Source of the DNA: Dictyostelium discoideum
Taxonomy: Eukaryota
Direction: 5' to 3'
Length of the DNA: 64,000 nt
NCBI GenBank assembly: GCA_000004695.1
Contig: CM000155.2
Span: 864,001 to 928,000 of the forward strand
Shown here: positions 692 to 34,051 of the stretch, piece by piece
Numbering within the stretch: the first letter of the stretch is position 1
How the letters are laid out: every line of letters starts with the position of its first letter
Notes under the pieces: generated by a model
The model's input: the letters and a program-made list of their open reading frames with translations, nothing else
Databases searched by the model: none
What the model was told of the DNA's origin: nothing
Position numbers and translations under genes: made by a program

Positions 692-824
692 AAAGAAATA
701 AACGAGAATTTATACATATAATAAATAAATCACTGTTATATCTTCACCGCCACATTCATTCCTCTTAATTTTACCCTTTTTTGCTCAGTAAAGCAAGGGC
801 TATTGTCCTATATACTTTTCAACA

Positions 825-5858: not shown

Positions 5859-5986
5859 TTACCTAATCTAAAATATAATACTATTTTAAATTCACAAAAA
5901 CTAAAAAACCTAAAATAAATAAATAAAAATAACATACTAATTGTATACTACAATAGTTTATTTATATCAAAAAAAAAAAAAAAAAA

Positions 5987-6094
5987 TAAATGAAGGCAAG
6001 GGTTCGATTCTCCTCTAAAGTTAAAAAAAACTCTTATAAAAACAATTAGAAATAGCTCTATTCCAGAACATTTTTGATATATTATTATTTATAA
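5987..6094 (+). other. A 108-bp unique spacer between element 1 and element 2. It carries a tRNA B-box-like motif (GGTTCGATTCT, 6012-6022). Likely a remnant of a tRNA 3' flank or extra-B-box that served as a target site.
   Basis: The spacer begins with the 15-mer 'TAAATGAAGGCAAGG'. The same 15-mer occurs 19 nt downstream of the tRNA-Phe gene (minus-strand sense at about 34233-34247). The B-box motif lies about 75-85 bp upstream of the 5' end of the next element. Confidence 0.5.
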
Positions 6095-6260
6095 AACCGT
6101 ACCGCTATCAAGAGGATACAAGATACACGTGAAAAGTAATTCATCCTTTTCTATCCTTAATCTCGGTCAATTTTAACCAATCTTTCGAAAAAAATCACCA
6201 ATCCACCACGATCTACAGATCTAACTTACCAAATCGCCGATTCAAAGGAATCCCATCGAG

Positions 6261-7509
6261 ATGAATTCCTACGCAGACGCGGCTAAAATGGCCAACCCCT
6301 CCACCCATATGGACGAGGCATCGGAGAACTTCATTAAGGAATTCTCCAAAAACAGCAGAGATAAAGGAAACTTACCCCAAACTATCAATAGGCCTCAAAG
6401 ACATCTCCAAATACTGCGAGACCATATTGAACATGACTGCGCTCTCAACCTACGAGAAAAACAACGGATTCTACCCAATTACACTCGAATTCCCCAAAAT
6501 GGATCTCAAGGGGTTAGAAGAAATGAGAAAAACACTCTCAAACTACGATATCCCAATCGACAAGATATACATAGGCAAAGGAACTAGAAAAATGATCCAC
6601 CTGATGATTAAAAAAGAACAATCTCTCCTAAATATCATTAGAGATAGAAGCAAATTGGGAACCTTCATCACCTCCAGTAGAGACTTCCACGTTCTCACAG
6701 GAAGAGTAAGAATTCCCAGAGAAAAGGCAGGAATAGTGGACGCCCTCATCAAAACTGCCTTTGCAGAAGAAATACCCTATGCAATATACAATACTATATA
6801 CTCCACCGACCACCTCATAGTATTCGGTCTAATAGAATGCAAAATAGGCGATCAAATGAAATCTGGCCAACACATTACAGAAATCGCAAACTTTACCATC
6901 AGAACGGCCACCAAAACCTACTCCTCACAAAAGAAAAACAAGAAAGTAGAGACAAACAACACGGAGGAACCATTAGAAGATAAGATGACAGATCCTCCTA
7001 ACACTCAAAACAGGATAGCAATCAAATCCTCTCAACCAAAACCACAACAACAAACAAACAACTCAGCAAACAATCAGTCTGATAAACAATCAACACAAGA
7101 GAAAAAAGCCCAAGCAAAAAAGTCGCTCTCAACCTCTTCCCCCCAAAAACCAAGCAGAATCTCAATCTGTCAAACCCACCACAACCACTACCACAACATC
7201 CAACGCCATCCAAAAAGACAATGCCAACAAAACGAGCACTAACATCCATTCATCCTCGGAAAACAGAGAGAAGACACCAAACATCCCTCCATCACATAAA
7301 CGCAAGAACGAGGAAATCCACTCAAACAACGAGGTCACCCAACTCTCACCAACAATAAACAGAAGCAACCCTTACATCCCATCCACCCCTAAGACACCTG
7401 TCAAAAAAGAAAGGAAAGGAATCATTGAGAGCTTCATAGAGAGTATCTACCCTTCACCATCCAAACCGCAGCTATACGACTCCCAAGAGGAGATCGATAT
7501 CATCTCATA
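6261..7509 (+). pseudogene. Element-2 ORF1 (417 aa in the intact copy), frameshifted by a 2-bp deletion near 6345.
   Basis: Copy 2 reads 'CTCCACAAAAACAGC' where this copy reads 'CTCCAAAAACAGC'. The ORF track splits the gene into 6261-6587 and 6427-7242. Confidence 0.8.
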
Positions 7510-10500
7510 ATGGTAGTAATCAAAATCAACCAATGGAATGTCAGAGGTTGGGGCACTGACACCTCCTTCAAAAACAAAACAGACTTTATCAAATCCCAAT
7601 CCCCCCCAAACTCATTGGCACTAACCATAGTCAATGAACTCAACGCCGACGCAACACAAGCACACCAGCTATTTCCTGGCTCCATCATTAGCGCAACCAA
7701 CAGAGGCAACGGAATAGGAATACTAAACCACAACAACCAAAACATAAAACTCTCACCAATATTCATAATAGAAGGTAGACTAATAATATCAGACATTCTA
7801 ATAAAAGATACCACAACGAGAATCTTGGCCATATACGCCCCGGCCCAACCTGATAAAAGAAAAATACTAGCTTCAACACTAAACAAACACTTCAACAACC
7901 AATACCACAACCTAACGTCTAACCCTAAAAAAAACATCGACATCATAGCAGGCGACTTCAATTGTTTAGACTTCAATGACAATCACACATCAAATGATGA
8001 TCAGGCAACTTGACAACACAATCCCCAGATGAGATGGCCACAGTAATCGAAGCCATCAGAATTTCAAATAACCTAATGGATATGGACCAACTAAATAAAA
8101 GACCCACCTTCTCAAGAACGATACACAACACAAACAATAACCTCACAAGAATCTTGGAAAGGAGACTAGACAGAATATACCTTAACAATAGCTTAATCAA
8201 CTACAGCCAATTATACTTAAGGAACCTAATCCCCCCAAAAATTAACGACATACCTCTATCAGATCACAACTTCCTATCAACCACTTTCACTCTACCCAAC
8301 ATACAGATGAACAAGCGCAGATGGAGATTAAAAAAATCCTCAATCCTCTCAAGCATAATGCTTAAGAAAATAGACTTCCTACTTAACGATTATTCAAGGG
8401 AGCTGTCATCCAACCATAACTCTATTTCCTTCTCTCAACTCAACAGCTTACTAAACAAAATAAAACAACTATACACCGAATTTCAAAAACAAAATGACTA
8501 CAACAATAAGGCAAACATCAAAAATCTAATCTCCCTACTAGAGACAGAATTTAAAGACCAAGCCTTCGCAACCCTTTCAGCAATAAATGAATCTAAAAAA
8601 AGAGAAGAACAACTTAAACAAGAATTGAACAACTATTGCGAAGAAACCTCACTCAAGTACATCTCCGCGAGAATCAAGAAAAGACACAATGATTTCACCA
8701 TCAACGCAGTAAAAGATGCACAAGGTAGAACAATTAACAAACAGGAATTGATCGAAGAAGAATACGTAAAATATTACTCAAATCTTTATGACTACAAAGA
8801 AGATGACCCACTATCTCATTACGAAATGTTGGAAAATTGGACAGTGACCAGGGACTCAACATGGGACAACCTTGAAAATGAATTCACCTCACAAGAAATC
8901 CTAGAAGTAATAAAACAACTGAACCCACACAAATCTCCAGGTCCAGATGGAATTCCAAACTTATTCTACATAACACACAAAGAAAAACTAGCTCCAATAC
9001 TGGCCTCAGCATTCAACGACACTCTAAGAAATCCTCATCTAATTAGCAAAAATTACAAAGAAGGCCTCATTATCACGATACCTAAAAAGGGAGACCCCGA
9101 ACTAATCAAAAACAGAAGACCAATTACACTGGCTAACTGTATATATAAAATCCACTCAAAACTAATAAACAATAGAATAATCCCAATACTATCGAAAGTG
9201 ATCAACCACAATCAAAAAGGTTTCGTACCAGGCAGATTCATTCTAGATAATATCATATCAATGAACGAATTAATCAACTATTGTAATGATAAAAGAATTA
9301 ACGGAATAATTACACTATATGATTTCGAAAAAGCTTTTGACTCGATCTCACACGGTTCAATACTCAGATCACTACAACACATCAACATTCCAACCAATAT
9401 AATCAACCTGATAATGAATCTACTCACCAAATCTGAAGCAAGAATTGAAATTAATGGTAGAACTACTATACCCTTTGAGATCAAAAGAGGAGTTAAACAA
9501 GGAGATCCACTATCACCCACCCTGTTCGTCCTTGTAATAGAGGCTTTAGCTAGAAAAATTTTACAAGATGACCGAATTACTGGCCTTCCTCTAAACAACA
9601 GCAACCACAGAGAGAAATTCCAAAGCTTTGCAGACGACTCGGCTTCAATGGTCCCAGACTCTCAACAACTTGAATTAGTACTACAACACTTCAATTCATT
9701 TTGCAAAGCCACTTCCTCAAAACTAAACATCGACAAATCTTCATCAATTCTTATAGGCAACCCAGACAATACCAACCAAAGAATTCCAATATCTACAAAT
9801 CCAGAAAGATACTTGGGATACTTCTTCACAGGCAAAGGGATAACAAGAAAAATGCCAGAATTATTAAACACAATAAGATCATCCTTAGTACTATGGAAAA
9901 CCACTGACTCAACAATCAAAACCAAAACCAACATCCTCAAAGCATTCGCACTCTCTAAATTAACCTACTATTCATATGTAGAGAACTTTAAGGAAGAGGA
10001 ATTAAACCAAATCAATAAATTAGTCGAATGGTTTTTATCGGCACCAAACAACAAAAATGCTAGTGGATTTCAAGTTATTAATTTAATGAGAACCAAAAGA
10101 GCAAGATACCCACTAAAAGTAGGGGGCTGGAACATTTGGAATATAGAATTGAGACAACTGGCGCAGAAACTTTGGATCATAAACCAGTTCATCCTAGCAC
10201 TAGAAACCAAACAAACAAACTCATCTCATCACAAAAGCTGGGAATATCAGATCCAAAAAAAACAAATTCACATCCAGATACCTAAAAGAAAACTTAGACG
10301 AATGGAACAAAATAAGAATAAAAAAAGCAATCTTCAACAATAATCTCACATCCATAAAAAACGAAAAAGGACAACCACTTTCACTGGCAGAATGGTATAC
10401 CACAATTCAAGACCAAAATCCAACCATCCCTAAAACGGAATTCCAATCATCTCTAAACTTAAGAGGCTACAGCTATAATCAACTCTTCAACAACATACTG

Positions 10501-11214
10501 AAGATAAAAGACCCTAAAACAAGAGACACAATGTTTAGATTCCATGCCAGATGCCTTCCAATAAACTACCTTCACAACAAACAATGCCCACTCTGCAAAG
10601 AAGATATGAGCAAAGACCCATACGGTCACCTGTTCTTCTCATGCAAGAAAACAAAACAATTCATAAAAATAAATAAACTCAAAAATTTCATCTTTATTAC
10701 CACAGGCAAAGGTAAAAACTGGCACCATACAAGAATTAGGCAAAATAACAATTTCATTAATAGAATAACTCCAAAATTATCACCGACAGCCAAAAAAGAT
10801 CAAGAAGTGAATGCAGATTACGCCAATCACAGATTCCACAAAGAATACTTTGAATGGAACTATAAAGCAATAGACTATGATCTAACCAGATCATTCGCAT
10901 ATAGAAACCTAATGGCCCTTATCCTCCACAACATTTGGATTTGGATTTGCAATCAAATATACAGTGAAGATCCTTTAACAGATGAATCACTATCATACAG
11001 CTCCCTTCTAAAGAAATGGCACAAATTGGCCACTCTAGAATACATCAAAAAAGCAAAAGATCTGAAAAACTTATCAGCAAAAGACCATAATAACTTCAAA
11101 GATCCTAAGATCCTTCTCACTTCAACGATCAAGCTAAGAAAAACAACAGCTAATTACTATTGTATTCCAGAATCATCTCTCCCTAATATTATATCTTTTG
11201 ATCAATTCATATGA
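7510..11214 (+). pseudogene. Element-2 ORF2 (APE-RT-Cys/His polyprotein) carrying two frameshifts: a 1-bp deletion near 8008 and a +1 A in an A-run near 10255.
   Basis: The ORF track gives 7510-8013, 8010-10343 and 10531-11214 in three frames. The sequence is otherwise about 99% identical to 13681-17383. RT motif 'FQSFADDSASM' is present. Confidence 0.8.
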
Positions 11215-11340
11215 TTAAAATAACCCTTCAGCTTAAATGATAAGCCTTTAAATAAATATTAAATAAAACTCGTATTAACACAGATGGACATATATCAATC
11301 TTGTTAATCCAATATTAAAAAAAAAAAAAAAAAAAAAAAA

Positions 11341-12219
11341 TAAAGGAATTCCAATCATCTCTAAACTTAAGAGGCTACAGCTATAATCAACTCTTCAACA
11401 ACATACTGAAGATAAAAGACCCTAAAACAAGAGACACAATGTTTAGATTCCATGCCAGATGCCTTCCAATAAACTACCTTCACAACAAACAATGCCCACT
11501 CTGCAAAGAAGATATGAGCAAAGACCCATACGGTCACCTGTTCTTCTCATGCAAGAAAACAAAACAATTCATAAAAATAAATAAACTCAAAAATTTCATC
11601 TATATTACCACAGGCAAAGGTAAAAACTGGCACCATACAAGAATTAGGCAAAATAACAATTTCATTAATAGAATAACTCCAAAACTATCACCGATAGCCA
11701 AAAAAGATCAAGAAGTGAATGCAGATTACGCCAACCTCAGATTCCACAAAGAATACTTTGAATGGAACTATAAAGCAATAGACTATGATCTAACTAGATC
11801 ATTCGCATATAGAAACCTAATGGCCCTTATCCTCCACAACATTTGGATTTGGATTTGCAATCAAATATACAGTGAAGATCCTTTAACAGATGAATCACTA
11901 TCATACAGCTCCCTTCTAAAGAAATGGCACAAATTGGCCACTCTAGAATACATCAAAAAAGCAAAAGATCTGAAAAACTTATCAGCAAAAGACCATAATA
12001 ACTTCAAAGATCCTAAGATCCTTCTCACTTCAACGATCAAGCTAAGAAAAACAACAGCTAATTACTATTGTATTCCAGAATCATCTCTCCCAAATATTAT
12101 ATCTTTTGATCAATTCATATGATTAAAATAACCCTTCAGCTTAAATGATAAGCATTTAAATAAATATTAAATAAAACTCGTATTAACACAGATGGACATA
12201 TATCAATCTTGTTAATCCA

Positions 12220-12256
<37 letters not shown>
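11341..12256 (+). mobile_element. 5'-truncated (about 0.9 kb) element-2 insertion. It contains only the ORF2 C-terminus, 3' UTR and poly(A) (12235-12255), as a dead-on-arrival copy.
   Basis: It begins abruptly inside ORF2 ('GGAATTCCAATCATCTCTAAAC', matching 10436) immediately after the poly(A) of copy 1. ORF 11439-12122 is identical in register to the ORF2 tail. Confidence 0.85.
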
Positions 12257-12263
<7 letters not shown>

Positions 12264-12426
12264 CGTACCGCGATCAAGAGGATACAAGATACACGTGAAA
12301 AGTAATTCATCCTTTTCTATCCTTAATCTCGGTCAATTTTAACCAATCTTTCAAAAAAAATCACCAATCCACCACGATCTACAGATCTAACTTACCAAAT
12401 CGCCGATTCAAAGGAATCCCATCGAG

Positions 12427-13680
12427 ATGAATTCCTACGCAGACGCGGCTAAAATGGCCAACCCCTCCACCCATATGGACGAGGCATCAGAGAACTTCAT
12501 TAAGGAATTCTCCACAAAAACAGCAGAGATAAAGGAGACCTACCCCAAATTATCAATAGGCCTCAAAGACATCTCCAAATACTGCGAGACCATATTGAAC
12601 ATGACTGCGCTCTCAACCTACGAGAAAAACAACGGATTCTACCCAATTACACTCGAATTCCCCAAAATGGATCTCATGGGGTTAGAAGAAATGAGAAAAA
12701 CACTCTCAAACTACGATATCCCAATCGACAAGATATACATAGGCAAAGGAACTAGAAAAATGATACACCTGATGATTAAAAACGAACAATCTCTCCTAAA
12801 TATCATTAGAGATAGAAGCAAATTGGGAACCTTCATCACCTCCAGTAGAGACTACCACGTCCTCACAGGAAGAGTAAGAATTCCAAGAGAAAAGGCAGGA
12901 ATAGTGGACGCCCTCATCAAAACTGCCTTTGCAGAAGAAATACCCTATGCAATATACCATACTACATACTCCACCGACCACCTCCTAGTATTCGGTCTAA
13001 TAGAATGCAAAATAGGCGATCAAATGAAATCTGGCCAACACAATACAGAAATCGCCAACTTTACCATCAGAACGGCCACCAAAACCTACTCCTCACAAAA
13101 GAAAAATAAGAAAGTAGAGTCAAACAACACGGAAGAACCATTAGAAGATGAGATGACAGATGATCCTCCCAACACCCAAAACAGGATAGCAATCAAATCC
13201 TCTCAACCAAAACCACAACAACAAACAAATGACCCAGCAAACAATCAGTCTGATAAACAATCAACCCAAGAGAAAAAAGCCCAATCAAAAAAGTCCTCTC
13301 AACCTCTTCCCCCCAAAAACCAAGCTTTATTTCAATCTGTCAAACCCACCACAACCACTACCACAACATTCAACGCCATCCAAAAAGACAATACCAACAA
13401 AACGAGCACTAACATCCATTCATCCTCGGAAAACAGAGAGAAGACACCAAACATCCCTCCATCACATAAACGCAAGAACGAGGAAATCCACTCAAACAAC
13501 GAGGTCACCCAACTCTCACCAACAATAAACAGAAGCAACCCTTACATCCCATCCACCCCTAAGACACCTGTCAATAAAGAAAGGAAAGGAATCATTGAGA
13601 GCTTCATAGAGAGTATCTACCCTTCACCATCTAAACCGCAGCTATACGACTCCCAAGAGGAGATCGATATCATCTCATAA
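12427..13680 (+). CDS. Element-2 ORF1 protein (417 aa, intact). Gag-like, with a basic, Ser/Thr/Pro/Gln-rich C-terminal half.
   Basis: Continuous ORF with a real ATG. Its stop overlaps the ORF2 ATG (TAATG). Confidence 0.85.
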   Translation: MNSYADAAKMANPSTHMDEASENFIKEFSTKTAEIKETYPKLSIGLKDISKYCETILNMTALSTYEKNNGFYPITLEFPKMDLMGLEEMRKTLSNYDIPIDKIYIGKGTRKMIHLMIKNEQSLLNIIRDRSKLGTFITSSRDYHVLTGRVRIPREKAGIVDALIKTAFAEEIPYAIYHTTYSTDHLLVFGLIECKIGDQMKSGQHNTEIANFTIRTATKTYSSQKKNKKVESNNTEEPLEDEMTDDPPNTQNRIAIKSSQPKPQQQTNDPANNQSDKQSTQEKKAQSKKSSQPLPPKNQALFQSVKPTTTTTTTFNAIQKDNTNKTSTNIHSSSENREKTPNIPPSHKRKNEEIHSNNEVTQLSPTINRSNPYIPSTPKTPVNKERKGIIESFIESIYPSPSKPQLYDSQEEIDIIS

Positions 13681-13783
13681 TGGTAGTAATCAAAATCAAC
13701 CAATGGAATGTCAGAGGTTGGGGCACTGACACCTCCTTCAAAAACAAAACAGACTTTATCAAATCCCAACCCCCCCAAACTCA

Positions 13784-16700
13784 TTGGCACTAACCATAGT
13801 CAATGAACTCAATGCTGACGCAACACAAGCACACCAGCTATTTCCTGGCTCCATCATTAGTGCAACCAACAGAGGCAACGGAATAGGAATACTAAACCAC
13901 AACAACCAAAACATAAAACTCTCACCAATATTCATAATAGAAGGTAGACTAATAATAGCAGACATTCTAATAAAAGATACCACAACGAGAATCTTGGCCA
14001 TATACGCCCCGGCCCAACCTGATAAAAGAAAAATACTAGCTTCAACACTAAACAAACACTTCAACAACCAATACCACAACCTAACGTCTAACCCTAAAAA
14101 AAACATCGACATCATAGCAGGTGACTTCAATTGTTTAGACTTCAATGACAATCACACATCAAATGACGACCAAGGCAACTTGACAACACAATCCCCAGAT
14201 GAGATGGCCACAGTAATTGAAGCCATCAGAATTTCAAATAACCTAATGGATATGGACCAACTAAATAAAAGACCCACCTTCTCAAGAACGATACACAACA
14301 CAAACAATAACCTCACAAGAATCTTGGAAAGGAGACTAGACAGAATATACCTTAACAATAGCATAATCAACTACAGCCAATTATACTTAAGGAACCTAAT
14401 CCCCCCAAAAATTAATGACATACCTCTATCAGATCACAACTTCCTATCAACCACCTTCACTCTACCCAACATACAGATGAACAAGCGCAGATGGAGATTA
14501 AAAAAATCCTCAATCCTCTCAAGCATAATGCTTAAGAAAATAGACTTCCTACTTAACGATTATTCAAGGGAGCTGTCATCCAACCATAACTCTATTTCCT
14601 TCTCTCAACTCAACAGCTTACTGAACAAAATAAAACAACTATACACAGAATTTCAAAAACAAAATGACTACAACAATAAGGCAAACATCAAAAATCTAAT
14701 CTCCCTACTAGAGACAGAATTTAAAGACCAAGCCTTCGCAACCCTCTCAGCAATAAATGAATCTAAAAAAAGAGAAGAACAACTTAAACAAGAATTGAAC
14801 AACTATTGCGAAGAAACCTCACTCAAGTACATCTCCGCGAGAATCAAGAAAAGACACAATGATTTCACCATCAACGCAGTAAAAGATGCACAAGGTAGAA
14901 CAATCAACAAACAGGAATTGATCGAAGAAGAATACGTAAAATATTACTCAAATCTTTATGACTACAAAGAAGATGACCCACCATCTCATTATGAAATGTT
15001 GGAAAATTGGACAGTGACCAGGGACTCAACATGGGACAACCTTGAAAATGAATTCACATCACAAGAGATCCTAGAAGTAATAAAACAATTGAACCCACAC
15101 AAATCTCCAGGCTCAGATGGAATTCCAAACTTATTCTACATAACACACAAAGAAAAACTAGCTCCAATACTGGCCTCAGCATTCAACGACACTCTAAGAA
15201 ATCCCCATCTAATTAGCAAAAATTACAAAGAAGGCCTCATTATCACGATACCTAAAAAGGGAGACCCCGAACTAATCAAAAACAGAAGACCAATTACACT
15301 GGCTAACTGTATATATAAAATCCACTCAAAACTAATAAACAATAGAATAATCCCAATACTAACGAAAGTGATCAACCACAATCAAAAAGGTTTCGTACCA
15401 GGCAGATTCATTCTAGATAATATCATATCAATGAACGAATTAATCAACTATTGTAATGATAAAAGAATTAACGGAATAATTACACTATATGATTTCGAAA
15501 AAGCTTTTGACTCGATCTCACACGGTTCAATACTCAGATCACTACAACACATCAACATTCCAACCAATATAATCAACCTGATAATGAATCTAATCACCAA
15601 ATCTGAAGCAAGAATTGAAATTAATGGTAGAACTACTATACCCTTTGAGATCAAAAGAGGAGTTAAACAAGGAGATCCACTATCACCCACCCTGTTCGTC
15701 CTTGTAATAGAGGCTTTAGCTAGAAAAATTTTACAAGATGACCGAATTACTGGCCTTCCTCTAAACAACAGCAACCACAGAGAGAAATTCCAAAGCTTTG
15801 CAGACGACTCGGCTTCAATGGTCCCAGACTCTCAACAACTTGAATTAGTACTACAACACTTCAATTCATTTTGCAAAGCCACCTCCTCAAAACTTAACAT
15901 CGACAAATCTTCATCAATTCTTATAGGCAACCCAGACAATACCAACCAAAGAATTCCAATATCTACAAATCCAGAAAGATACTTGGGATACTTCTTCACA
16001 GGTAAAGGGATAACAAGAAAAATGCCAGAAATATTAAACACAATAAGATCATCCTTAGTACTATGGAAAACCACTGACTCAACAATCAAAACCAAAACCA
16101 ACATCCTCAAAGCATTCGCACTCTCTAAATTAACCTACTATTCATATGTAGAGAACTTTAAGGAAGAGGAATTAAACCAAATCAATAAATTAGTCGAATG
16201 GTTTTTATCGGCACCAAACAACAAAAATGCTAGTGGATTTCAAGTTATTAATTTAATGAGAACCAAAAGAGCAAGATACCCACTAAAAGTAGGGGGCTGG
16301 AACATTTGGAATATAGAATTGAGACAACTGGCGCAGAAACTTTGGATCATAAACCAGTTCATCCTAGCACTAGAAACCAAACAAACAAACTCATCTCATC
16401 ACAAAAGCTGGGAATATCAGATCCAAAAAAACAAATTCACATCCAGATACCTAAAAGAAAACTTAGACGAATGGAACAAAATAAGAATAAAAAAAGCAAT
16501 CTTCAACAATAATCTCACATCCATAAAAAACGAAAATGGACAACCACTTTCACTGGCAGAATGGTATACCACAATTCAAGACCAAAATCCAACCATCCCT
16601 AAAACGGAATTCCAATCATCTCTAAACTTAAGAGGCTACAGCTATAATCAACTCTTCAACAACATACTGAAGATAAAAGACCCTAAAACAAGAGACACAA

Positions 16701-17383
16701 TGTTTAGATTCCATGCAAGATGCCTTCCAATAAACTACCTTCACAACAAACAATGCCCACTCTGCAAAGAAGATATGAGCAAAGACCCATACGGCCACCT
16801 GTTCTTCTCATGCAAGAAAACAAAACAATTCATAAAAATAAATAAACTCAAAAATTTCATCTATATTACCACAGGCAAAGGTAAAAACTGGCACCATACA
16901 AGAATTAGGCAAAATAACAATTTCATTAATAGAATAACTCCAAAATTATCACCGACAGCCAAAAAAGATCAAGAAGTGAATGCAGATTACGCCAACCACA
17001 GATTCCACAAAGAATACTTTGAATGGAACTATAAAGCAATAGACTATGATCTAACCAGATCATTCGCATATAGAAACCTAATGGCCCTTATCCTCCACAA
17101 CATTTGGATTTGGATTTGCAATCAAATATACAGTGAAGATCCTTTAACAGATGAATCACTATCATACAGCTCCCTTCTAAAGAAATGGCACAAATTGGCC
17201 ACTCTAGAATACATCAAAAAAGCAAAAGATCTGAAAAACTTATCAGCAAAAGACCATAATAACTTCAAAGATCCTAAGATCCTTCTCACTTCAACGATCA
17301 AGCTAAGAAAAACAACAGCTAATTACTATTGTATTCCAGAATCATCTCTCCCAAATATTATATCTTTTGATCAATTCATATGA
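13784..17383 (+). CDS. Element-2 ORF2 polyprotein (APE-RT-Cys/His). A 1199-aa ORF runs from an internal Met. The true start is at 13681, but a 1-bp deletion in the C7 run at about 13768-13775 separates the first about 30 codons.
   Basis: Copy 1 has 'CCCAATCCCCCCC' where this copy has 'CCCAACCCCCCC'. Downstream, the APE motifs ('IIAGDFNCLDF', 'SDHNFL'), RT motifs ('FDFEKAFDSISHGSI', 'FADD') and 'HARCLPINYLHNKQCPLCKED' are intact. Confidence 0.75.
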   Translation: MALTIVNELNADATQAHQLFPGSIISATNRGNGIGILNHNNQNIKLSPIFIIEGRLIIADILIKDTTTRILAIYAPAQPDKRKILASTLNKHFNNQYHNLTSNPKKNIDIIAGDFNCLDFNDNHTSNDDQGNLTTQSPDEMATVIEAIRISNNLMDMDQLNKRPTFSRTIHNTNNNLTRILERRLDRIYLNNSIINYSQLYLRNLIPPKINDIPLSDHNFLSTTFTLPNIQMNKRRWRLKKSSILSSIMLKKIDFLLNDYSRELSSNHNSISFSQLNSLLNKIKQLYTEFQKQNDYNNKANIKNLISLLETEFKDQAFATLSAINESKKREEQLKQELNNYCEETSLKYISARIKKRHNDFTINAVKDAQGRTINKQELIEEEYVKYYSNLYDYKEDDPPSHYEMLENWTVTRDSTWDNLENEFTSQEILEVIKQLNPHKSPGSDGIPNLFYITHKEKLAPILASAFNDTLRNPHLISKNYKEGLIITIPKKGDPELIKNRRPITLANCIYKIHSKLINNRIIPILTKVINHNQKGFVPGRFILDNIISMNELINYCNDKRINGIITLYDFEKAFDSISHGSILRSLQHINIPTNIINLIMNLITKSEARIEINGRTTIPFEIKRGVKQGDPLSPTLFVLVIEALARKILQDDRITGLPLNNSNHREKFQSFADDSASMVPDSQQLELVLQHFNSFCKATSSKLNIDKSSSILIGNPDNTNQRIPISTNPERYLGYFFTGKGITRKMPEILNTIRSSLVLWKTTDSTIKTKTNILKAFALSKLTYYSYVENFKEEELNQINKLVEWFLSAPNNKNASGFQVINLMRTKRARYPLKVGGWNIWNIELRQLAQKLWIINQFILALETKQTNSSHHKSWEYQIQKNKFTSRYLKENLDEWNKIRIKKAIFNNNLTSIKNENGQPLSLAEWYTTIQDQNPTIPKTEFQSSLNLRGYSYNQLFNNILKIKDPKTRDTMFRFHARCLPINYLHNKQCPLCKEDMSKDPYGHLFFSCKKTKQFIKINKLKNFIYITTGKGKNWHHTRIRQNNNFINRITPKLSPTAKKDQEVNADYANHRFHKEYFEWNYKAIDYDLTRSFAYRNLMALILHNIWIWICNQIYSEDPLTDESLSYSSLLKKWHKLATLEYIKKAKDLKNLSAKDHNNFKDPKILLTSTIKLRKTTANYYCIPESSLPNIISFDQFI

Positions 17384-17480
17384 TTAAAATAACCCTTCAG
17401 CTTAAATGATAAGCCTTTAAATAAATATTAAATAAAACTCGTATTAACACAGATGGACATATATCAATCTTGTTAATCCA

Positions 17481-17524
<44 letters not shown>

Positions 17525-17754
17525 ATTTATTTTGATGGAAATATATTTTTGAATTTAAAATGCTTTCGTCTTTTCTGTAAATATGGTCCGATTAATAAAT
17601 ATTAAAAATCTGAATAAAATATTTTATTTTTTAATGACGAATTATTTTATTTATTTGAATAAAAATCCTATTGAAAATAACAATTTTGAAAAATATCATT
17701 ATTTATTTATTTATTTATTTATTTTTTTATTCCAATTTATAAATACATAAAGAA

Positions 17755-19313
17755 ATGAATATTTTAAAATTAATAATATTTTTTTTGGTTTGCTTTTTTG
17801 TTAATAATGTAAAGTCACAAGATGAATCACCAATTAAATTAATCGTTAATCCAAATATTAAAAATGCATATGTAGTTGGTGAAAAGTGTGGTATTGAAAC
17901 ATTTACATGTAATTCAATTATTGATGCGGTTGCATACTTTAATTCAATTGCAGTATTAGTAGATAATGGAGCAATCTATCAACAATTAAATATAAAATTA
18001 TCAAATTATTCATATGGTATTATAGAGAACATTGTTAATTTATTTCAATTAAATTGTACAATCTCACCATTTGATGAGGAGGTAAAGTTGTGTTCGATAA
18101 TTTAAGTAATCCATTAAATAATACAGAATCAATGATAGAGTTATATGGACCAATTGTAAACGCTACAACATCAGTTTTAAATAGTTATATAAGCTTTAAT
18201 AATTTTAATGATTCAGTTATTTTAGTTTTATCTAATGATCAATATTCAAATGTTACAATTGATCAATTCAATTTCAACAATTATCAAACTCAAAAAAATG
18301 TACACATGATTGGGTTTACAAGATATTGGGCACCGGTTGATGGTGATTCTCTTACAGGTACAATCACAATTTCAAATTCCAACATTACAAATATCAACAA
18401 TAATGGAGGTGGTTTTACATCAAATGGTGTGTATTATTCTTATGGTATTAACATTACATTAGTTAATGTTATGATTTCTAATATTACTGCACAAATTCAA
18501 ACATTATTATATGTTGAAAATAGTATTGTAAATATAACCAATTGTGATTTTAATTATGTTAATACAAAGTAGAGGTAGTAGTATAGTAATGTTAAATTCA
18601 ACATTTAATTCATTATCATCAATGAACGGTGGCGCCTTATTAAACCATGATATTGAAAGCCCAAACCAAAAATCATCATTCAACATTACAGATTGCAAAG
18701 TTTTGAATTGTTGTTCCCAAGTAGGCAATGGTCATTCAATTATTTAATTCACTAAGTTTAGACGTTCCAATTATTAATATAAATAATAGTATATTTAATA
18801 ATAACAGTGGTTTTTATGGTGTACTTGAAAGTGACTATTATTCAATTAGTATAAATGATTGTTCATTTGATTCGAACTATGGTTCTTTGGCTAATCTTTT
18901 CTCTTTTTCATCTGGATCATTAACTGTTTCAAATTAAACAATTATCAATGTATTAGAAGAATCTCATGAAAAAGCCCAAATTTATAGTGGTACTGTTATA
19001 TTTGATAACTCAAATATTTTATTTGATGGTTGTACCTTTGGAAAAGAATATTTTAGTATTTCCTGTTATAAATCAAACATTGAATTTTCAAATTCAAATA
19101 ATTTAAATCTATTTTATATTTGTAATCAATGTGATCAATTAACTGTCAATTCAAATTCAATTTGTAAACAAAGTTCAACAACTTCAACTCTCAATTTTGA
19201 TAGTGATAGTAATGATTCTATAAAATTAATTCCAAACAACTTTTCAATATTTTTTATTATCTTTTTTATAATAATAATATTAACAACAACCAACAATAAT
19301 CTCTTTTAATTTT
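17755..19313 (+). pseudogene. Secreted, Asn-rich (N-glycosylation-rich) beta-helix-like cell-surface protein with an N-terminal signal peptide and a C-terminal hydrophobic (GPI/TM-like) tail. It is interrupted by at least four frameshifts and is a probable pseudogene.
   Basis: Signal peptide 'MNILKLIIFFLVCFFVNNVKSQ'. The coding signal continues through frames 1, 0, 1, 2, 0 (17755-18105, 18090-18572, 18544-18747, 18728-18937, 18942-19313). There are no intron-like gaps or compatible GT...AG phases at the junctions. It ends '...IFFIIFFIIIILTTTNNNLF'. Confidence 0.45.
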
Positions 19314-19872
19314 AATATATTGTTTTTTTTTTTTTTTAATTTTAATAATAATTTCTTTATTTATTTTTTAAAAATATAATTATAATTTATAATAAAACAA
19401 AAATAAAAAAAAAAAAAATAAACAAAGAGTATAAATTCAATTATAGATTTTAAAGAAAATTCATATTTGGTTTTGTTTAGAAAAAAAAAAAAAAAAAAAA
19501 AAATCCAGAACAAAACGGAGATATTTTTTTTAGTTTTTTTTGAATCCCAAATTTTTGCCTGGGAAATAATATTTTTTTTTTTTTTTTTATTTAACCCGAA
19601 AAACCAGGGTTAAAAACAAAAAAAAAAAAGATTAATGAAATCGTGATTATTTTTTTTTTTTTTTGTGTGTTTAATTATAACCAAACAAAAAATAATAAAA
19701 AATATTAAAAATAATTATTATTTTTTATATAATTATAAATAATTATATATAAAAAAATTATGACAATAATAAATAATGATAATATTAGTTTGTATTTTTT
19801 TTTTAAATATATCATTTTTTTTTTTTTTTTTTTTTTTTTTTTGACTAACTGAAATTTCTTATTGTTTCTAAC

Positions 19873-19916
<44 letters not shown>

Positions 19917-20094
19917 GATAATAATAATTATATAAATAATCAATTTTTAAATAATAATAATAATAATAATCATAAGGAAAAAAATGAAATATTAAAAAAA
20001 ATTTAAGGGAAAAAAAAATGTAAAAATAAAAGTAAAAAAAAAAAATAATAATAAATTTTTAGGAATTATAATGGGATTTTAAAAAACACTTTTT

Positions 20095-21299
20095 AGGGCA
20101 ACATCAGCAAAATTATCACAATTTATAGTATCGGGGGATTATAAAGGGCCATTTACAATCATAGGGTTAAAAACTAAAATTTTATCATTTTCATTAGTTA
20201 TTGAATTTATTTTATTAAAGATTGAATTAATTAAAGAGAGAAAAGATGGATTAAAGATTAATTTCGATGATGTAAAACATATAGATTATAATATTAATAG
20301 TAGTATAAGTGGTAGTTGTAACTATGAATTAAATTATACAAAACAGGATACCCTATTTCAAAGATTTCAAAGTAAATTTAAAATTGAACATACTATTAAT
20401 CCTGAAAATGGTGAAACCATCAACACTGGTATCACCCTTAAAAAATTATTTATAATTTCAATACCAATGTCAATTTTATTCGTTGCTTTAAATTGGATTT
20501 GGATGTTAGCAATTTCAATGACTGAAGTTAGTATTTCAACTGCATTATATCGTAAGTTGTATTTATTTATTTATTTATTCTAAACAACAAGTAATTAACA
20601 TGATTTTATCCCACTTTCATAGAAAGTGCATCAGTGTTTTGTTTCTTTTTATCAATTATAATATTAAAAGAAAAAGTTAAAATTTTAAAAACAATTTCAG
20701 TTATAATATTTATGGGAGGGATTGTTGGAATTGCAATTACAACAGTTGGAACATCAAAAGGTGAATATCCGCATGCAATCAAGGGAGAGATTTTAATGAT
20801 TATTTCAGCAGCAATGTGGGGTTTATATGAAGTTCTAACATCGAAATTCATTGGTGATGCTAATAGAACTATAGTTCATACTTATATGGGTTTAATTGCA
20901 TTTGTAAATTTAATATTGGGTATACCGGTAATTGTTATTTTAAATGTAACCAATTTTGAACCATTTTCAGTGCCATCAATATCAGTATTTGGAATGTTAT
21001 TATTGAATGCTTTTGTGGGTTTCTCTGTAAACTATTTAATTAATTGGGGTTTGTCAGTTACTTCACCATTATTCGTTAGATCTGGTGAATTAATGGTAAT
21101 AGTAGCAACTTTATTATTTGATATAATCATTAAACATATGAAACTACCTCTCTTGGCATTGCCTGGTTATTCTTTAATTGTTATTGGTTTTATCTTATCT
21201 GTTTATATTGAAAGTAGAGATATTAAACAACAACAAGAAAAAGAAAAAGAAAAACAAAAAAATAATAATGGTGAAACTGAATCATTATTAAATTATTAA
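20095..21299 (+). CDS. SLC35F/Thi74-like (DMT/EamA superfamily) multi-pass membrane transporter, paralog A. Exons run from about 20095 or earlier to 20551 and from 20623 to 21299. The 5' end is unresolved.
   Basis: GTAAGT donor at 20552 and acceptor at 20621-22. The spliced product '...ISTALYQSASVFCFFLSIIILKEK...' is collinear with paralog B. No ATG was found for exon 1, and its open frame begins right after a 'tttttag'. Confidence 0.6.
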
Positions 21300-21598
21300 A
21301 TTATAATTTTTAATTTTTTTTTTATATATCATTTATATAAATTAAAAAAACTATAATTTTAAATCTTAAAATAAATTTATTATTTTTTTAAAAAAAAAAA
21401 AAAAAAAATTTAATTAATGTTATAGATTTAAAAAAAAAAAAAAAAAAATAATAAAAAAAAAAAAAAAACTTTATTTGATAACTTTTTTTTTTTATAAAAA
21501 AAAAAAAAAAACTTTATTTGATAACTTTTTTTTTTTATAAAAAAAAAATAAAAATAAAAATAAATGATATATAATTCTTATCATTGTGTATCAATTAT

Positions 21599-22218: not shown

Positions 22219-23767
22219 ATGATATTAAAATTGTATACTAATTTAATAAATAAAAAAAATGAAATTGAAAATAAAAATATTATTTTAGGTGAAATTAATA
22301 GTAATAATAATATTAATAATAATGAAAATAATGAAAATAGTAATAATATTGATAATAACAATAAATGCAAATTAGGATATGATAAAGAAAATATTAATAA
22401 TGACAATATTAATAATAATAATAATACTATTATCAGTAATAAAATAATAAAAGAAAATAAAAAGGGGGATAGAAATAAATTCCTGGGAATAATTATAGTA
22501 ATTTTAATTACAATATTTCAAACAGGATTTTCAGAATTATCATCATTTGTAGTAACTGGTGATTACAATTCACCATTTATGATTGGTTGGTTTAATACCA
22601 TTTTCTTATTATTTTCATTTTTAATTGAATTTATTTTAATTAAATTTGAACTTAATAAAGAGAAAAAAGAATTATTAAATATTAATAACGAACCACCACA
22701 AAAACAAGATACTATTTTAAAAAGATTTAAAAGTAAATTTAAAAATCAAATTATATTTGATAATGAAACTGGTGCCGAAACAATATCCCCAAATGGTATT
22801 ACTTTAAAAAAATTAATAATAATATCAATACCAATAACTATATTATATATTATATTAAATTGGTTATGGGTATTAAGTTTATCAATGACTGAAACCAGTA
22901 TTGCCACTGCCTTATATCGTAAGTTTTTATTTTTTTTTTTTTATTTTTTTTTTATCTTAATTTCAAATTAATAAAGATTAAAAAAAATAAAAATACACAC
23001 ATTTATATTAATAAAATTTTTCCTTTTTTTTTTTTTTTTTTTTTTTTTTAGAAAGCGCAACAGTTTTTTGTTTCTTTTTGTCAATTATAATTTTAAAAGA
23101 GAAAATTAGAATTTTAAAATCATTATCAATTTTAATATTTATGGGTGGCTTAGTTGGTATAGTAGTTGCAACAACAACAACAACAACAGATGGTGATGAT
23201 AAATTTCCAAATGCAATATTGGGTGATATTTTAATGATTGTATCAGCATTTTTATGGGGTTTATATGAAGTGTTAACATCGAAATTCATTGGTGATGCAA
23301 ATAGGACCATTGTAAATACATATATGGGTTTAATAGGATTATTTAATTTAATTATCGGTATACCAATAATTATAATATTAAATTTTATAAAATTTGAATT
23401 ATTCAAAATACCAGATTCGTATACATTCATAATGATATTAGTTAATGCAATTGTTGGTTTCTCAGTATTGTATCTGATTGTATGGGGTTTGTCAGTTACC
23501 TCACCATTATTCGTTAGATCAGGTGAATTAATGACAATTCCTTCAACTTTGATATTTGATATTCTATTTAAAAAAATGAAATTACCATTACTAGCTATAC
23601 CAGGTTACATTCTAATCGTTATTGGCTTCGTTTTATCAGTTTTCATTGAAAGTAGACAAATTAAAAAAAAAGAAAAATTAAAAAATCAAAAAGGTGAAAA
23701 TGGAAATGAAAAAAACCAAAAAAAAGAAAATCAACAATTTAATCAATTTTCTGAAATAAATTTATAA
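22219..23767 (+). CDS. SLC35F/Thi74-like membrane transporter, paralog B, a tandem duplicate of A. Exons 22219-22918 and 23052-23767, about 471 aa, with a poly-N N-terminus and at least nine predicted TM segments.
   Basis: Real ATG at 22219. GTAAGT donor at 22919 and acceptor AG at 23050-51. The proteins share 'WGLYEVLTSKFIGDANRTIV.TYMGLI...SVTSPLFVRSGELM' with paralog A. Confidence 0.7.
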
Positions 23768-23963
23768 AATAATTACATATTTATTTAACTACTACTTATT
23801 GTGTTGATTTATTCATATTTGTTTATTTAATTGGACATTCTTTTAACATAGATTCAGGAAAAGAAAAAAAGAGAAAAACAAATAAAAAAAGAAAAAAAAA
23901 TTGTTTTATTATTTTTAATTTTCTAATTTTACAGTATATTATTTTGAAGTACTTGGAATATTA

Positions 23964-28897: not shown

Positions 28898-29018
28898 TTT
28901 TTTTTTTTGATATAAATAAACTATTGTAGTATACAATTAGTATGTTATTTTTATTTATTTATTTTAGGTTTTTTAGTTTTTGTGAATTTAAAATAGTATG
29001 TTATTTTAGATTAGGTAA

Positions 29019-32000
29019 TTAATAATTAATTGGTGGTGTAATTGTTGGAATTGGTTCATTTGTGTTTATGCTCCATTCTTTTTTAAATTTTTTGATGGTT
29101 TCGGACCATTGGGTTTCTTTTTGAGTTTTTGTGAGGTTGTTTTTAATTGAGTATTGGTTAAAGTTTGATAAAGTTCTTGAATATTCCAATCTTATTAGCT
29201 TGTGCCATTTTGATTTTAATATGTCATAATCTAGTGTTGTGTTGTTTATTTGGTTGTTCCAATTATCAATTGATTGAGTTATATTGATGTCAAATAATGA
29301 TTTGCATAACCATATCCATATTTGGTGAATAACTAATGAGATTATGTTCCAATATGCATGTGTTCTGACTAGATCAAGATTTGTGTTTATATAATTCCAG
29401 TTGAACCTGTATTTTTTATATTGTGCGTTTTCTGCAAAATGAAAATTAATATTGATAGTTGGATCTGGTTTAAATGCTTTGTTGTTTGTTTGTGGTTTAT
29501 AGATGAGTGTGTATAATTTTGTTGTTTGGTTTTTTGTTAGTGACCAGTTTTTGTTTCCATTGCAATTTTTATATATAAAATATTTTAATTTGTCGTGGTT
29601 AATGAAGTTGATTGTGTGCTGACAATTGAAAAACAAATGACCATAGGGATCATTATTCATTTCATTGTTGCAAATGGGGCAAACTTTGTTGTGTAGATGA
29701 TTAATCGGAAGACATCTAGCATGGAATCTTTGCATTGTATCACGGCCTTTTGGATCTTTTAATTTTTGAATTTTGACAAAAAGTTGGTCGTATGTGTATT
29801 TCCATAATAGTTGTATTGATTGTTGGTGCGAAGTAAGAAGTAGATCTGAATATTTCTTGCCAATATAGTCTTTTGATTTACATTGGTGATTGTTGAGTAT
29901 TGTCGAGTAGATTTCTTTGAGTGTTGGTGGTAGTGAAATATTATTTGTGTTTAATGTTTGAGAGGTTTGATTTTTTATTAATATTGGTTGTAGGATTTGA
30001 ACTTTATCTTTTAGATGTCCAATTTGAGTTGCATAGTTTTCCCATTCTTTTTTGATTTTTATAAGGTATGGAGAAGAGATTGATTTGTTGATGATTTGAT
30101 CCATCCAACTTATCATGTATATTGAATTGTTTGCAGATTTATGCATTTGTAAAAATCTGTTGTATATCCAAATCTTTTGAGCAACTTGTCGTAATTGTAT
30201 ATTCCACATACCCCAACCACCTTCTTTTAATGGTTTTAATGATCTATCATAACACATCAAAGGTATTTTTGCACGTGAATGGATGGTTGATGTGTTGTTT
30301 TCAATGGAATTGGTATTAGGAGTTGGTGATTCAGAATTTGCGGGAGAATTCATAAACCATGAGATTAATTTATTAATTTGAAATTCTTCATCTTTTGTAA
30401 ATTCTTCAAGGTATGATAAATATGTTATTGGTGATAGTGAGTAGGTGTTTATGATGGTTGTTTTTGTTTTTAATGTTGTGCCACTAGTTTTCCATAGTAC
30501 TAATGATTTATTCAATGTTTTCATTGTTTCTGGTAATTTCCTATGTAAACCATTATGATTAAAGAAATAGCCAAGAACTCTTTCTGATTGATCTTTTTTG
30601 GTTATTGGTATTCTTTTTGATTGTGGAATATTGTTTATTATGTGTTTATCAGTGATTTTGTGGGGGTTGATTTCTATTATTGCACTTTTGTCAAAATTTA
30701 ATGATGATGATGTTGAAGCGCAGAAATTATCGAAATGTTTGATTGATTGTTGTTGTTGTTCGTAGTTGATGTTGTATGTTGTAGAGTCGTCTGCAAATTG
30801 GGTAAATTTGATTTTAATTTGTGGATTGGGTGAAATTGGTAAACCAATTATTGAATTGTCTGCATTTATTGTTCTTGCTAATATTTCAATTACAATTACA
30901 AATAAAGTGGCTGAGATTGGGTCACCTTGTTTTACACCTCTTTTAATTTCGAATTTTCTGGTTGTTTTACCATTAATTGAAATTTTTGCTTGTGAGTCAG
31001 ATAATAGCTTGTGGATTAAATTTATTAATTTTATTGGTATACCAATATGAATTAATGTTCTTTTAATACTATCGTGAGAGATAGAATCAAATGCTTTAAA
31101 GAAGTCAAATAGTGTGATGATACCAGGGAGGTTTTTAGATTTGAGGTAGTTGATTAATTCATTGATGTTGATGATGTTGTCTATGATGAATCTGTGGGGT
31201 ACGAAACCAGTTTGGTTGTTGTTGATGATGAAAGGAAGTATTCTCAGAAGACGTGCATTGATTACTTTTGAGAGGATCTTGTAATCAGTGTTTAGAAGTG
31301 TAATGGGACGACGATTTGATATGAGTAACGGGTTGCCTTTCTTGTATATTGTGTGTATAAGACCTTCGGTGAATTCTGTTGTGATGTGGTGAGGATTTTC
31401 TAGTATATCGTTGAATAATGTAGTGAGAATTGGTTTAACTTGGTTTAAATGATTAATGTAGAATGCATTTGTAACGCCATCTGGACCGGGTGATTTGTTG
31501 GGGTTACAGGTTTTAATTGCAGCTTCAACTTCATCTTGTATAAATGGTGAGTCTAAACCATTCCAATATTCATTTTTTATGATGGGCCATGTGTTTAGCA
31601 TGAGCTGGTGAGTTATTGGACAACATATTTGTAAGCTATATAGATTTGTGTAGAATTCAACAAACGCATTTTCAATTTGGTCGGGGTCGGATGTAATGAT
31701 GTTACCATATTGGATTGATTCAATTTTTGCATCTTTTGATCTTTTGTTTAGTATTGCTGATAGATACTTGCTAGGTATTTCTCCATTTATATGTTTTTTT
31801 AATATGTTTGTGTGGTTTTGATGTAATTTGTTTTTGTTACATATAATATTGTATTCAGCGATGCATTGTTCTTCAAGATGTTTGAATTTTGCCGCTTTTT
31901 CTAAAAGTATTTGTTTTGCACGTTGAGTTTGTTTGTCTTTGTTATATTGATAGTTTTTTAGAGTTTTAATAATTTTTGATTTTACTTTTGACCAGTTTGT

Positions 32001-32846: not shown

Positions 32847-34051
32847 ACCTTACTAGGTTTGGCAGCACCAGTATTGACTGGTTGTGTAGTCAGGGCATTG
32901 CTGCTTCTTCTTGTATTTATTGGATTTGGAGTTGGTGCACTTGGTTTGTTTGGTTGAGATTGTAGAGGTTTTTGTGGTACAATTGTTGGATCGGTTGGAT
33001 TGCTCATTGATAATGAGTTTTTCCCGTTATTATTATTTGAAGAATCACTTTTGTGTGAAATTTCATTATTGTTTTGGGATTGATTGTTAATATCAAGTGA
33101 TTCATTTAGTATAGCTTTTGAACCACTATTTTGAAGTGAGTTATTATTGCGATTGGAATTTGCAATTTCGTTGATTGGTGGGGTTTTAATGTTGTTTTTT
33201 GGTGGTTGATTGTTTTTGTTCATGTTTGGGTTTGTGATGGCATTTTTTATAGTTGTTGCCATATCTGCATTTTTTGCATGTTGAATTTTGTGTTTAGTGA
33301 CACTACGTGTTGCAGCTTTGATATATCTTGTGATACCAGATGGTTGTTCGATCTTTTGATCAACAATGTTGTGTGTGTGATCAATTAGCTGATATGTTAT
33401 AATGTAGCTTTTAAACGCAACAGCATATGAGTATGTGACAGTAAATGATTCAATTGATGTACAACTGGTGAATTTAGTGAGGTTGTTTGTAATTGCATCG
33501 TTTGCATGTTTGGGTGAGTACGTTTTAATGAATGTTTTAATGATTGCATAATCATTTGATGATATATCGAATCTATAGTTGAGTTTGTCGATATTTAGTG
33601 CAAGTTGGTTTTGAAGGTTGATTATTGAAGTTAATTTATCAACGTTGCAATTTACGAAGGCAGTTGCACCAATTATTTTGAATGCTGATGGCGACAGTAT
33701 ATCTTCGAAGAGTTTGTGAATGTTTTTGTGAATTTGTTGAATTCTTGTGTCATCTTTTGAGGTTAATTCTTCACGGATGTGTGGTTGATTAAAGTAACAC
33801 TTAATGTTGATGGTGTTATTGTTTTTTTCTAAGAAAGAGAGTGGTCTTGTGATTGATGGAGGTGCAATGATATCTAATTGATTATCAAGTCCTTTGTTTA
33901 GTGAGAGTTGGTTTGTTGGGGTTTGTTTTTTAGGTGTGTCGATTTTTGCACTTTTGTTTTTTGTTGTTGAGGTTGTGGAGGTATTATTTGTATTGGTTGT
34001 GTTGTTATCTGTATGATTTAACTGTAATTCAGTTGAGTGATCATCAGCCAT
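32843..34051 (-). CDS. Element-1 ORF1 protein (402 aa), intact.
   Basis: Continuous ORF. It matches the frameshifted fragments of the plus-strand copy (825-2037). Confidence 0.88.
   Translation of the reverse strand: MADDHSTELQLNHTDNNTTNTNNTSTTSTTKNKSAKIDTPKKQTPTNQLSLNKGLDNQLDIIAPPSITRPLSFLEKNNNTINIKCYFNQPHIREELTSKDDTRIQQIHKNIHKLFEDILSPSAFKIIGATAFVNCNVDKLTSIINLQNQLALNIDKLNYRFDISSNDYAIIKTFIKTYSPKHANDAITNNLTKFTSCTSIESFTVTYSYAVAFKSYIITYQLIDHTHNIVDQKIEQPSGITRYIKAATRSVTKHKIQHAKNADMATTIKNAITNPNMNKNNQPPKNNIKTPPINEIANSNRNNNSLQNSGSKAILNESLDINNQSQNNNEISHKSDSSNNNNGKNSLSMSNPTDPTIVPQKPLQSQPNKPSAPTPNPINTRRSSNALTTQPVNTGAAKPSKV

Follow-up and report, generated by a model that had tools for sequence, protein, structure and literature searches.

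The closest described system for the gene considered here is the group around DDB_G0293836 (Q54B87_DICDI), an uncharacterised 523-aa protein of Dictyostelium discoideum AX4 on which a full-text literature search found no paper. Together with the orthologous and paralogous proteins of D. citrinum and D. dimigraforme (P0002-P0011), it matches our locus in length class, intronless build and signal peptide, at 43-56% identity. A second comparison is provided by right-handed parallel beta-helix proteins of the Beta_helix (PF13229) and Chlam_PMP (PF02415) types, which the predicted fold of an intact paralogue resembles at the fold level only; unlike these proteins, no DDB_G0293836-like member reaches the Pfam threshold. 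The third concerns the surroundings of the gene: TRE3 retrotransposons are described as inserting at a distance of ~100 bp downstream from tRNA genes (PMC5006619). Elements neighbouring our locus are TRE3-type in having two ORFs, an APE endonuclease together with a reverse transcriptase and a poly(A) tail, an assignment based on architecture and position and not on the named TRE3-A, TRE3-B, TRE3-C or TRE3-D sequences.

We analysed a 64-kb window of AT-rich, Dictyostelium-like DNA (GC 0.11-0.41). Three-frame translation, family matches and an orthologue consensus outline what was once a single-exon ORF of ~520 codons on the forward strand at 17755-19309, from its ATG to its original TAA. With high confidence we interpret this stretch as a unitary, non-processed pseudogene of an intronless gene of ~520 codons, disabled by four private mutations and decayed independently in each sampled lineage. 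In contrast to the DDB_G0293836 group, the window copy carries three frameshifts and a stop, and it represents a separate old branch without an intact orthologue in any sampled genome.

The coding signal runs from the ATG at 17755 to the TAA at 19307-19309 and is spread over several frames. An earlier note on this DNA had counted five reading frames; in fact, three frameshifts and one nonsense codon divide the gene into five ORF pieces lying in three frames, all on the forward strand. These are 17755-18105 (frame 1), 18078-18572 (frame 0), 18574-18747 (frame 1), 18728-18937 (frame 2, closed by an in-frame TAA) and 18938-19309 (frame 2 again, beyond that TAA). Correcting the frames yields a conceptual protein of 515 aa. 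Judged by eye, its N-terminus MNILKLIIFFLVCFFVNNVKS (17755-17817, forward strand), which precedes QD, resembles a signal peptide, and the same feature is found at the N-terminus of most intact paralogues. The protein ends in SIKLIPNNFSIFFIIFFIIIILTTTNNNLF, and the hydrophobic character of this C-terminus is likewise apparent by eye. The hydrophobic tail NNFSIFFIIFFIIIILTTTNNNLF (19235-19306, forward strand) is a candidate GPI signal or membrane anchor, with an equivalent after SSTTSTL in all intact paralogues. Both repeat motifs quoted earlier are present in the conceptual protein; the 'dozens' of N-x-S/T sequons, on the other hand, come down to 18 in its 515 aa. From these sequence features we infer that the ancestral protein was glycosylated and anchored by GPI or in the membrane. 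On its own the first ORF encodes a 116-aa fragment that is predicted to be secreted, and the pseudogene locus may have a role through such a truncated product or as a regulatory RNA. Upstream of the ATG, 231 bp of native 5' flank are kept (17524-17754, forward strand), reaching back to the last retrotransposon poly(A), which ends at 17523, in agreement with the ~230 bp given before. BLAST homology to the region upstream of the orthologous locus L002 starts at 17685, and likeness was seen by eye upstream of this position as well.

The conceptual protein belongs to a Dictyostelium protein family, a membership directly visible in matches with E values down to 1e-195. Hypothetical Dictyostelium proteins of 505-530 aa were matched at E = 8e-114 to 3e-85, with 43-49% identity over 91-99% of the query. 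One matched cluster contains DDB_G0293836, so that the search for intact paralogues proposed earlier has returned several, including this one in D. discoideum AX4. When a paralogue was compared with the window by tblastn, its HSPs were colinear across the frames of the pseudogene, and no second family copy was detected within the 64 kb. In the family alignment (A2) most members have a signal peptide, and the N-terminal block is strongly conserved. The pseudogene N-terminus, MNILKLIIFFLVCFFVNNVKS followed by QDESPIKLIVNPNIKNAYVVGEKCGIETFTCNSI, aligns to invariant A2 columns, and the Cys-containing block is present. Also present, in frame 2, is the C-terminal C..C......IC..SSTTSTL block with its hydrophobic tail (YICNQCDQLTVNSNSICKQSSTTSTLNFDSDSNDSIKLIPNNFSIFFIIFFIIIIL). 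The blocks common to the pseudogene and the DDB_G0293836 group read SPI(K/T)LIVNPN...GEKCGIETFTCNSI.DAVAYFNSIAVLVDNG.IYQQLNIKLSN at the N-terminus and NLNPFYIC.QC.QLTVNSNSIC..SSTTSTLNF plus hydrophobic tail at the C-terminus. Four intact relatives (P0002, P0007, P0006 and P0004, of which P0006 and P0004 are orthologues of DDB_G0293836) are single-exon genes. An intact single-exon ORF of about 505-530 codons is what the window copy lacks, having three frameshifting deletions and one nonsense codon; it is a pseudogene member of the family and not a functional one.

The conceptual protein had no Pfam match at E <= 1, and none was obtained at E <= 0.01 for seven intact relatives (P0006, P0002, P0026, P0027, P0028, P0030 and P0032); PF13229 and PF02415 gave no above-threshold match in either the conceptual protein or the seven relatives scanned. 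An AlphaFold2 model of the paralogue P0006, rather than of the pseudogene, consists of repeated triplets of short strands (pLDDT 71.6, pTM 0.76). The top Foldseek matches of this model in the PDB are all right-handed beta-helix proteins, the matches being weak (E ~3e-4, TM 0.3-0.4), and they include the PfbA adhesin (4mr0), PL6 lyases, chondroitinase B (1dbg) and phage tailspikes. A profile search of 1.8 billion representatives produced 17 matches below 1e-30, all of them whole or fragmentary members of the family; the remoter matches (E = 1e-31 to 1e-11) are large repeat proteins with Chlam_PMP and Beta_helix domains, aligned via the central region of the family. The earlier description of the gene as beta-helix-like has support for the family at the level of the predicted fold, and its assignment as a pseudogene of a Dictyostelium family of putative secreted or membrane-anchored proteins agrees with the family matches and the predicted beta-helix. 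The set of sequences defines a small, fast-evolving dictyostelid family of predicted beta-helix proteins, secreted or anchored, with no Pfam model and no studied member.

The lesions were placed by a DNA alignment (A1) of the window with the orthologous loci L002, L003 and L004, which were reached through gene models of other assemblies; four such models contained pieces of the pseudogene fused to an EamA-domain gene downstream. The majority consensus of the orthologous sequences is one uninterrupted ORF of 520 codons, from ATG to TAA. Against it, four disabling differences in the window, all on the forward strand, are directly observed. At codon 109 a 1-bp deletion (~18079-18080, +/-2 bp) shifts frame 1 to frame 0; in A1 column 355 the window has GATGAGG-AGG where the other sequences have GATGAAGGCGG and GATGAAGTGGG. 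A 17-bp deletion at codon 269 (18559-18567; A1 columns 846-862) shifts frame 0 to frame 1. It lies between two AATACA direct repeats and takes out the ...NT(F/Y)IGA... motif, which is conserved in the paralogues. The third lesion is a 2-bp deletion at codon 332, GGNGTC > GGTC (18730-18733, at ~18731; A1 column 1044), by which frame 1 becomes frame 2. The fourth, also placed by A1, is a nonsense mutation at 18935-18937, where C>A at 18936 turns TCA (Ser, codon 401) into TAA; L002, L003 and L004 all have TCA at this site, and TAA is found in a separate assembly, L001, and in an SRA-derived contig, L009. A fifth change of the window relative to the consensus is an in-frame 3-bp indel in the tail. 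All four junction intervals delimited by the earlier reading contain or adjoin one of the lesions mapped by alignment. Programmed frameshifting or readthrough was considered and rejected: the lesions are of different kinds and private to one haplotype, and the sequence is intact in the reconstructed ancestor.

That the lesions are real is equally a matter of observation. An intact gene misread through sequencing or assembly errors, the alternative raised by the earlier note, might be suspected in an AT-rich, homopolymer-rich genome, and the related locus L002 has an error-like excess of 1-bp indels. However, L001 (GCA_054883475.1, strain tag ACTFIT), an 11.7-kb contig from a separate assembly, is 100% identical to window positions 17530-19330 and hence across the gene. 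For the junctions, where the earlier note had proposed a check of raw reads, independent sequence data are provided by the Logan contig L009 (SRR28564540): it matches window positions 17941-19500 with 1 mismatch and 0 gaps and carries all four lesions. Moreover, the 69-aa ORF closed by the TAA of the fourth lesion was found on eight contigs assembled from public SRA runs. Among the lesions, the 17-bp and 2-bp deletions remove more than a single base and the nonsense change is a substitution, and in the same window transposon ORFs of 1199 aa and 1275 aa and the EamA exon of the downstream gene are intact. Identity with L001 and the gapless SRA-derived contig refute the error reading, which we regard as almost inconceivable. 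L001 and the SRA run probably belong to one laboratory lineage (NC4/AX) and give no measure of how far the allele has spread in nature. An intact gene in which short cryptic introns bridge the frame changes would match the automated models P0024, P0012, P0001 and UPI00004E2F56 (P0167), which splice around each lesion. This reading is nevertheless highly improbable, because sequence is missing at the lesions and none is added, because the four intact relatives examined all have a single exon that runs colinearly past each of the lesions, and because the 'introns' of the models cut conserved residues, such as GGNVVFDGLINPLNNTESMIE and the NTFIGA motif. The sole GT..AG pair at the first lesion, read from the sequence, is 25 nt long and out of phase, and the in-frame TAA is not removable without loss of conserved beta-helix strands. 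The absence of introns asserted earlier therefore holds, the intact members being single-exon and the frame changes simple deletions relative to the orthologues.

The lesions are spliced around in at least five deposited gene models (UPI00004E2F56, ACTFIT_007045/007046, ACTFIW_000205, ACTFIR_003426 and ACTFIY_009990), and four of these, all except ACTFIY_009990, join pieces of the pseudogene to the downstream EamA gene. The UniParc entry UPI00004E2F56, with 716 aa, is identical to the window. These spliced-around and EamA-fused models are artefacts. The fused ones give the EamA transporter a false N-terminus and hide the pseudogene, and the main value of our result lies in curation.

Lesions independent of those in the window are directly observed at the orthologous loci. 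In L002-L004 the neighbours of the pseudogene are the same as in the window, with tRNA-Phe upstream and the EamA gene downstream. L004 (D. cf. discoideum, ACTFIY) has frameshifts of its own: one base pair is inserted, and three deletions measure 10, 2 and 8 bp. In L003 (D. discoideum, ACTFIR) two large deletions took away the promoter together with the start codon and left little of the first two thirds of the gene, and a private stop is found in addition. Only ~150 bp are left in L005 (ACTFIZ), equivalent to window positions 18764-18910; they lie beside a DDE-transposase domain, to which the gene model fuses them. L002 (ACTFIW) shows 11 frameshifting indels and 2 stops. We rejected it as an independently decayed orthologue, since it differs from its close relative L003, with which it has 3.5 kb of flank in common, by 153 gap openings against 161 mismatches. 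The end of its contig is less than 6 kb away, the tRNA-Phe and the EamA gene of L002 are broken too, and its 1-bp indels are probably assembly errors. No disabling lesion is common to more than one lineage, and none of the sampled D. discoideum-complex lineages has an intact copy at the locus. Among sister species, D. citrinum and D. firmibasis contain neither a gene nor a remnant of the family in the interval from tRNA-Phe to the EamA gene. The family member of D. dimigraforme that lies nearest upstream, P0007, is intact and has ~50% identity with the reconstructed ancestor (tblastn gives 48%), its orthology being uncertain; the syntenic site of this species also holds a weak family remnant. 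As a unitary pseudogene should, the window copy sits at the ancestral syntenic position between native flanks, and neither a poly(A) tract nor a target-site duplication belongs to it. It is very doubtful that the losses within the complex, independent in at least three and perhaps five lineages, were driven by selection for loss instead of mere relaxed constraint; a surface beta-helix might, for example, have been exploited by a pathogen, predator or cheater. The position directly downstream of a tRNA gene, a landing zone for retrotransposons, could also have made the gene unusually prone to disruption. The repeated lineage-specific decay of the family is of possible interest for the evolution of the Dictyostelium cell surface.

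Whether the gene died once or several times can be weighed by the pattern of substitutions, for which omega was obtained by Nei-Gojobori counting in a very AT-rich gene with a three-sequence consensus as ancestor, so that all values are rough. The lineages are genuinely diverged; the EamA exon of the neighbouring gene has a dS of 0.085-0.135 and an omega of ~0.09. A single ancient loss would have left the gene dead in the ancestor of the D. discoideum complex, for instance by a regulatory mutation, and the ORF lesions would be later neutral decay. Such a history is consistent with the want of an intact copy in any sampled lineage and of any lesion in common, and with codon-position differences between the window and L002 that are nearly uniform (40/31/48). 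In contrast, omega in the ancestral frame stays below 1. It is 0.51 on the private branch of the window (P = 0.012 against omega = 1) and lower still on the branch of L004 (0.27) and between the window and L004 as a pair (0.37), compared with 0.7-1.7 in shifted-frame controls; the value for the L004 branch is close to the baseline of 0.30 for an intact paralogue (ACTFIW against ACTFIZ). We consider a single loss unlikely, if worth keeping in mind. The residual purifying selection suggests a gene still working at the time the lineages split, with parallel losses thereafter. The amino-acid identity of AX4-type sequences to ACTFIW drops from 96.6% in the intact paralogue to 85.7% in the pseudogene. 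With parallel losses, the window copy would, very roughly, have been drifting for ~30% of its private branch after function was lost. The claim of a recently pseudogenised gene stands as to the pseudogene, and 'recently' is only loosely right given this rough ~30% and the lack of an intact copy among those sampled. A distinctly unlikely alternative makes a retrotransposon the first inactivating event: inserted 231 bp upstream, it would have cut off the promoter, with the ORF lesions following. The spacer between tRNA-Phe and the ATG, ~400 bp long in L004 and L002 (in L003 the start codon is deleted), is indeed split in the window by >17 kb of transposons, with 231 bp left by the gene. However, in L003 and L004 the pseudogene directly follows tRNA-Phe(GAA), both being on one strand with no transposon between them, and both copies are disabled; a transposon was therefore not needed for the death of the gene. 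The earlier proposal that inactivation was tied to the neighbouring transposons is not supported, although promoter truncation may have played a part in the window haplotype. In addition, the position of the array is accounted for by tRNA targeting (PMC5006619), and the sequence does not give the order of transposon insertion and ORF lesions.

Returning to independent decay, the favoured reading, we would reconstruct the history as follows. The ancestral gene would have been intronless, with ~520 codons, at its original chromosomal position, and its product would have combined a signal peptide with a predicted right-handed beta-helix body and, at the C-terminus, a hydrophobic anchor signal. 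Purifying selection would still have acted on it after the D. discoideum-complex lineages parted, and decay would then have proceeded separately in each sampled lineage. In the window haplotype the 1-bp deletion, the 17-bp deletion between the short direct repeats, the 2-bp deletion and the C>A nonsense change together preclude a full-length product. The retrotransposon array would be a consequence of the tRNA-Phe once ~400 bp upstream, and is no more than a putative cause of inactivation. This order of events, and the reason for the relaxed selection, we infer.

Upstream of the pseudogene lie non-LTR retrotransposons, whose domains include an APE endonuclease and a reverse transcriptase. In the last one of the array, ORF2 (13784-17383) contains RVT_1 and Exo_endo_phos domains, and its poly(A) tail, read from the sequence, lies at 17486-17523 on the forward strand. 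The tRNA-Phe(GAA) itself was located with ARAGORN, synteny and junction sequences at 34266-34339 on the reverse strand, and the former upstream neighbours of the gene, encoding CS-domain and TIM21 proteins, are found at 34258-40143 in reverse orientation. The pseudogene lies between the two arms of a 5.3-kb inverted repeat. One is a two-ORF APE+RT retrotransposon at 660-5979 on the forward strand, recovered as two adjoining matches (660-1054 and 1049-5979); the other occupies 28898-34216 on the reverse strand and is 98-99% identical to the first. As in TRE3-type insertions, one window element begins at a distance of 34 bp downstream from tRNA-Phe, with a target-site duplication of 14 bp. The copy at 660-5979 ends in poly(A), followed by the 14-mer AAATGAAGGCAAGG (5988-6001) and then GGTTCGATTCTC, the whole 3' junction spanning 5988-6012 on the forward strand; GGTTCGATTCTC is the sequence that follows tRNA-Phe in other strains. 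The 5' junction of the same insertion is on the tRNA side, where the copy starts after AAATGAAGGCAAGG at 34233-34246 (reverse strand). The two junctions of one insertion are found on different copies, and the segment 5980-28897, with the pseudogene, is therefore flipped, an inversion of roughly 23 kb relative to other strains. As judged from these junctions, the flip would be due to recombination between the inverted copies or to the assembler. Undoing it would bring into a single orientation, one after another, tRNA-Phe, element A, the ex-B-like box, the 6.2-kb element array, the 231 bp and the pseudogene, an arrangement to be expected of TRE3-type elements with their insertion downstream of tRNA genes (PMC5006619). 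The tRNA-Phe is likely the target of the retrotransposon array, which marks the tRNA-Phe landing site and not the dead gene. The pseudogene is an ordinary dead gene and changes no general principle. Two modest points concern its setting: the parallel decay across lineages and the transposon-mediated rearrangement around it.

A V-ATPase subunit-a gene and two EamA genes share a ~23-kb segment with the pseudogene and the transposon array, and this segment is enclosed between the arms of a 5.3-kb inverted repeat. These arms are copies of a two-ORF retrotransposon (660-5979, plus strand, and 28898-34216, minus strand) and are 98-99% identical; the target-site duplications occupy 5988-6001 (+) and 34233-34246 (-). 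A single insertion targeted to tRNA-Phe has its 5' junction on one repeat copy, while its 3' junction is now found on the other. The relative orientation of the ~23-kb segment is also opposite in three other genomes. The split junctions and the opposite orientation therefore indicate either an inversion of the segment via recombination between the 5.3-kb copies, or a flip introduced during assembly.

The array itself (5980-17523) contains a 6.17-kb non-LTR retrotransposon twice in tandem. ORF2 is broken in the first copy (about 6000-11340) and intact, encoding 1199 aa, in the second (about 12250-17523). An additional 3' piece of the element, 908 bp in length, is duplicated (10434-11341 versus 11342-12250), and this 3' end recurs at positions 1-650. 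The array looks like the product of repeated insertion 3' of one and the same tRNA gene.

Downstream of the pseudogene, two tandem EamA-type paralogues (20619-21258 and 23049-23795) share about 72-75% DNA identity, and this tandem pair is kept at all related loci. The EamA/SLC35F-like transporter gene at 19700-21300 probably has its real start 3' of 19310. In several assemblies its protein models carry a false N-terminus built from pseudogene fragments (P0167, P0012, P0008, P0013 and P0015); of the EamA models, ACTFIY_009989 (P0169, 446 aa) seems clean.

The orthologous ACTFIW locus (L002; GCA_054859355.1, JBTAPG010000039.1, positions 766-15718) lies at a contig end. When aligned to its close relative L003, gap openings and mismatches occurred at a ratio of ~1:1 across several kb, a tRNA-Phe gene and conserved protein genes included. 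This suggests an indel-rich, low-quality assembly region, and gene models there, such as ACTFIW_000205, are therefore unreliable.

The pseudogene's family seems prone to turnover. Further disrupted or truncated members occur in related species (protein models P0014, P0022, P0023, P0025, P0031 and P0038, and L010 4386-4807). One D. dimigraforme model joins an N-terminal family fragment to retrotransposon integrase sequence, and a degenerate family remnant is found 5' of the D. dimigraforme EamA orthologue. Intact family members are adjoined by genes (L006 1-352 and 8270-9805, L007 1-1653, L008 207-1905) whose 505-527-aa products had no Pfam match. Similar in size to the family, these neighbours may be tandem paralogues.
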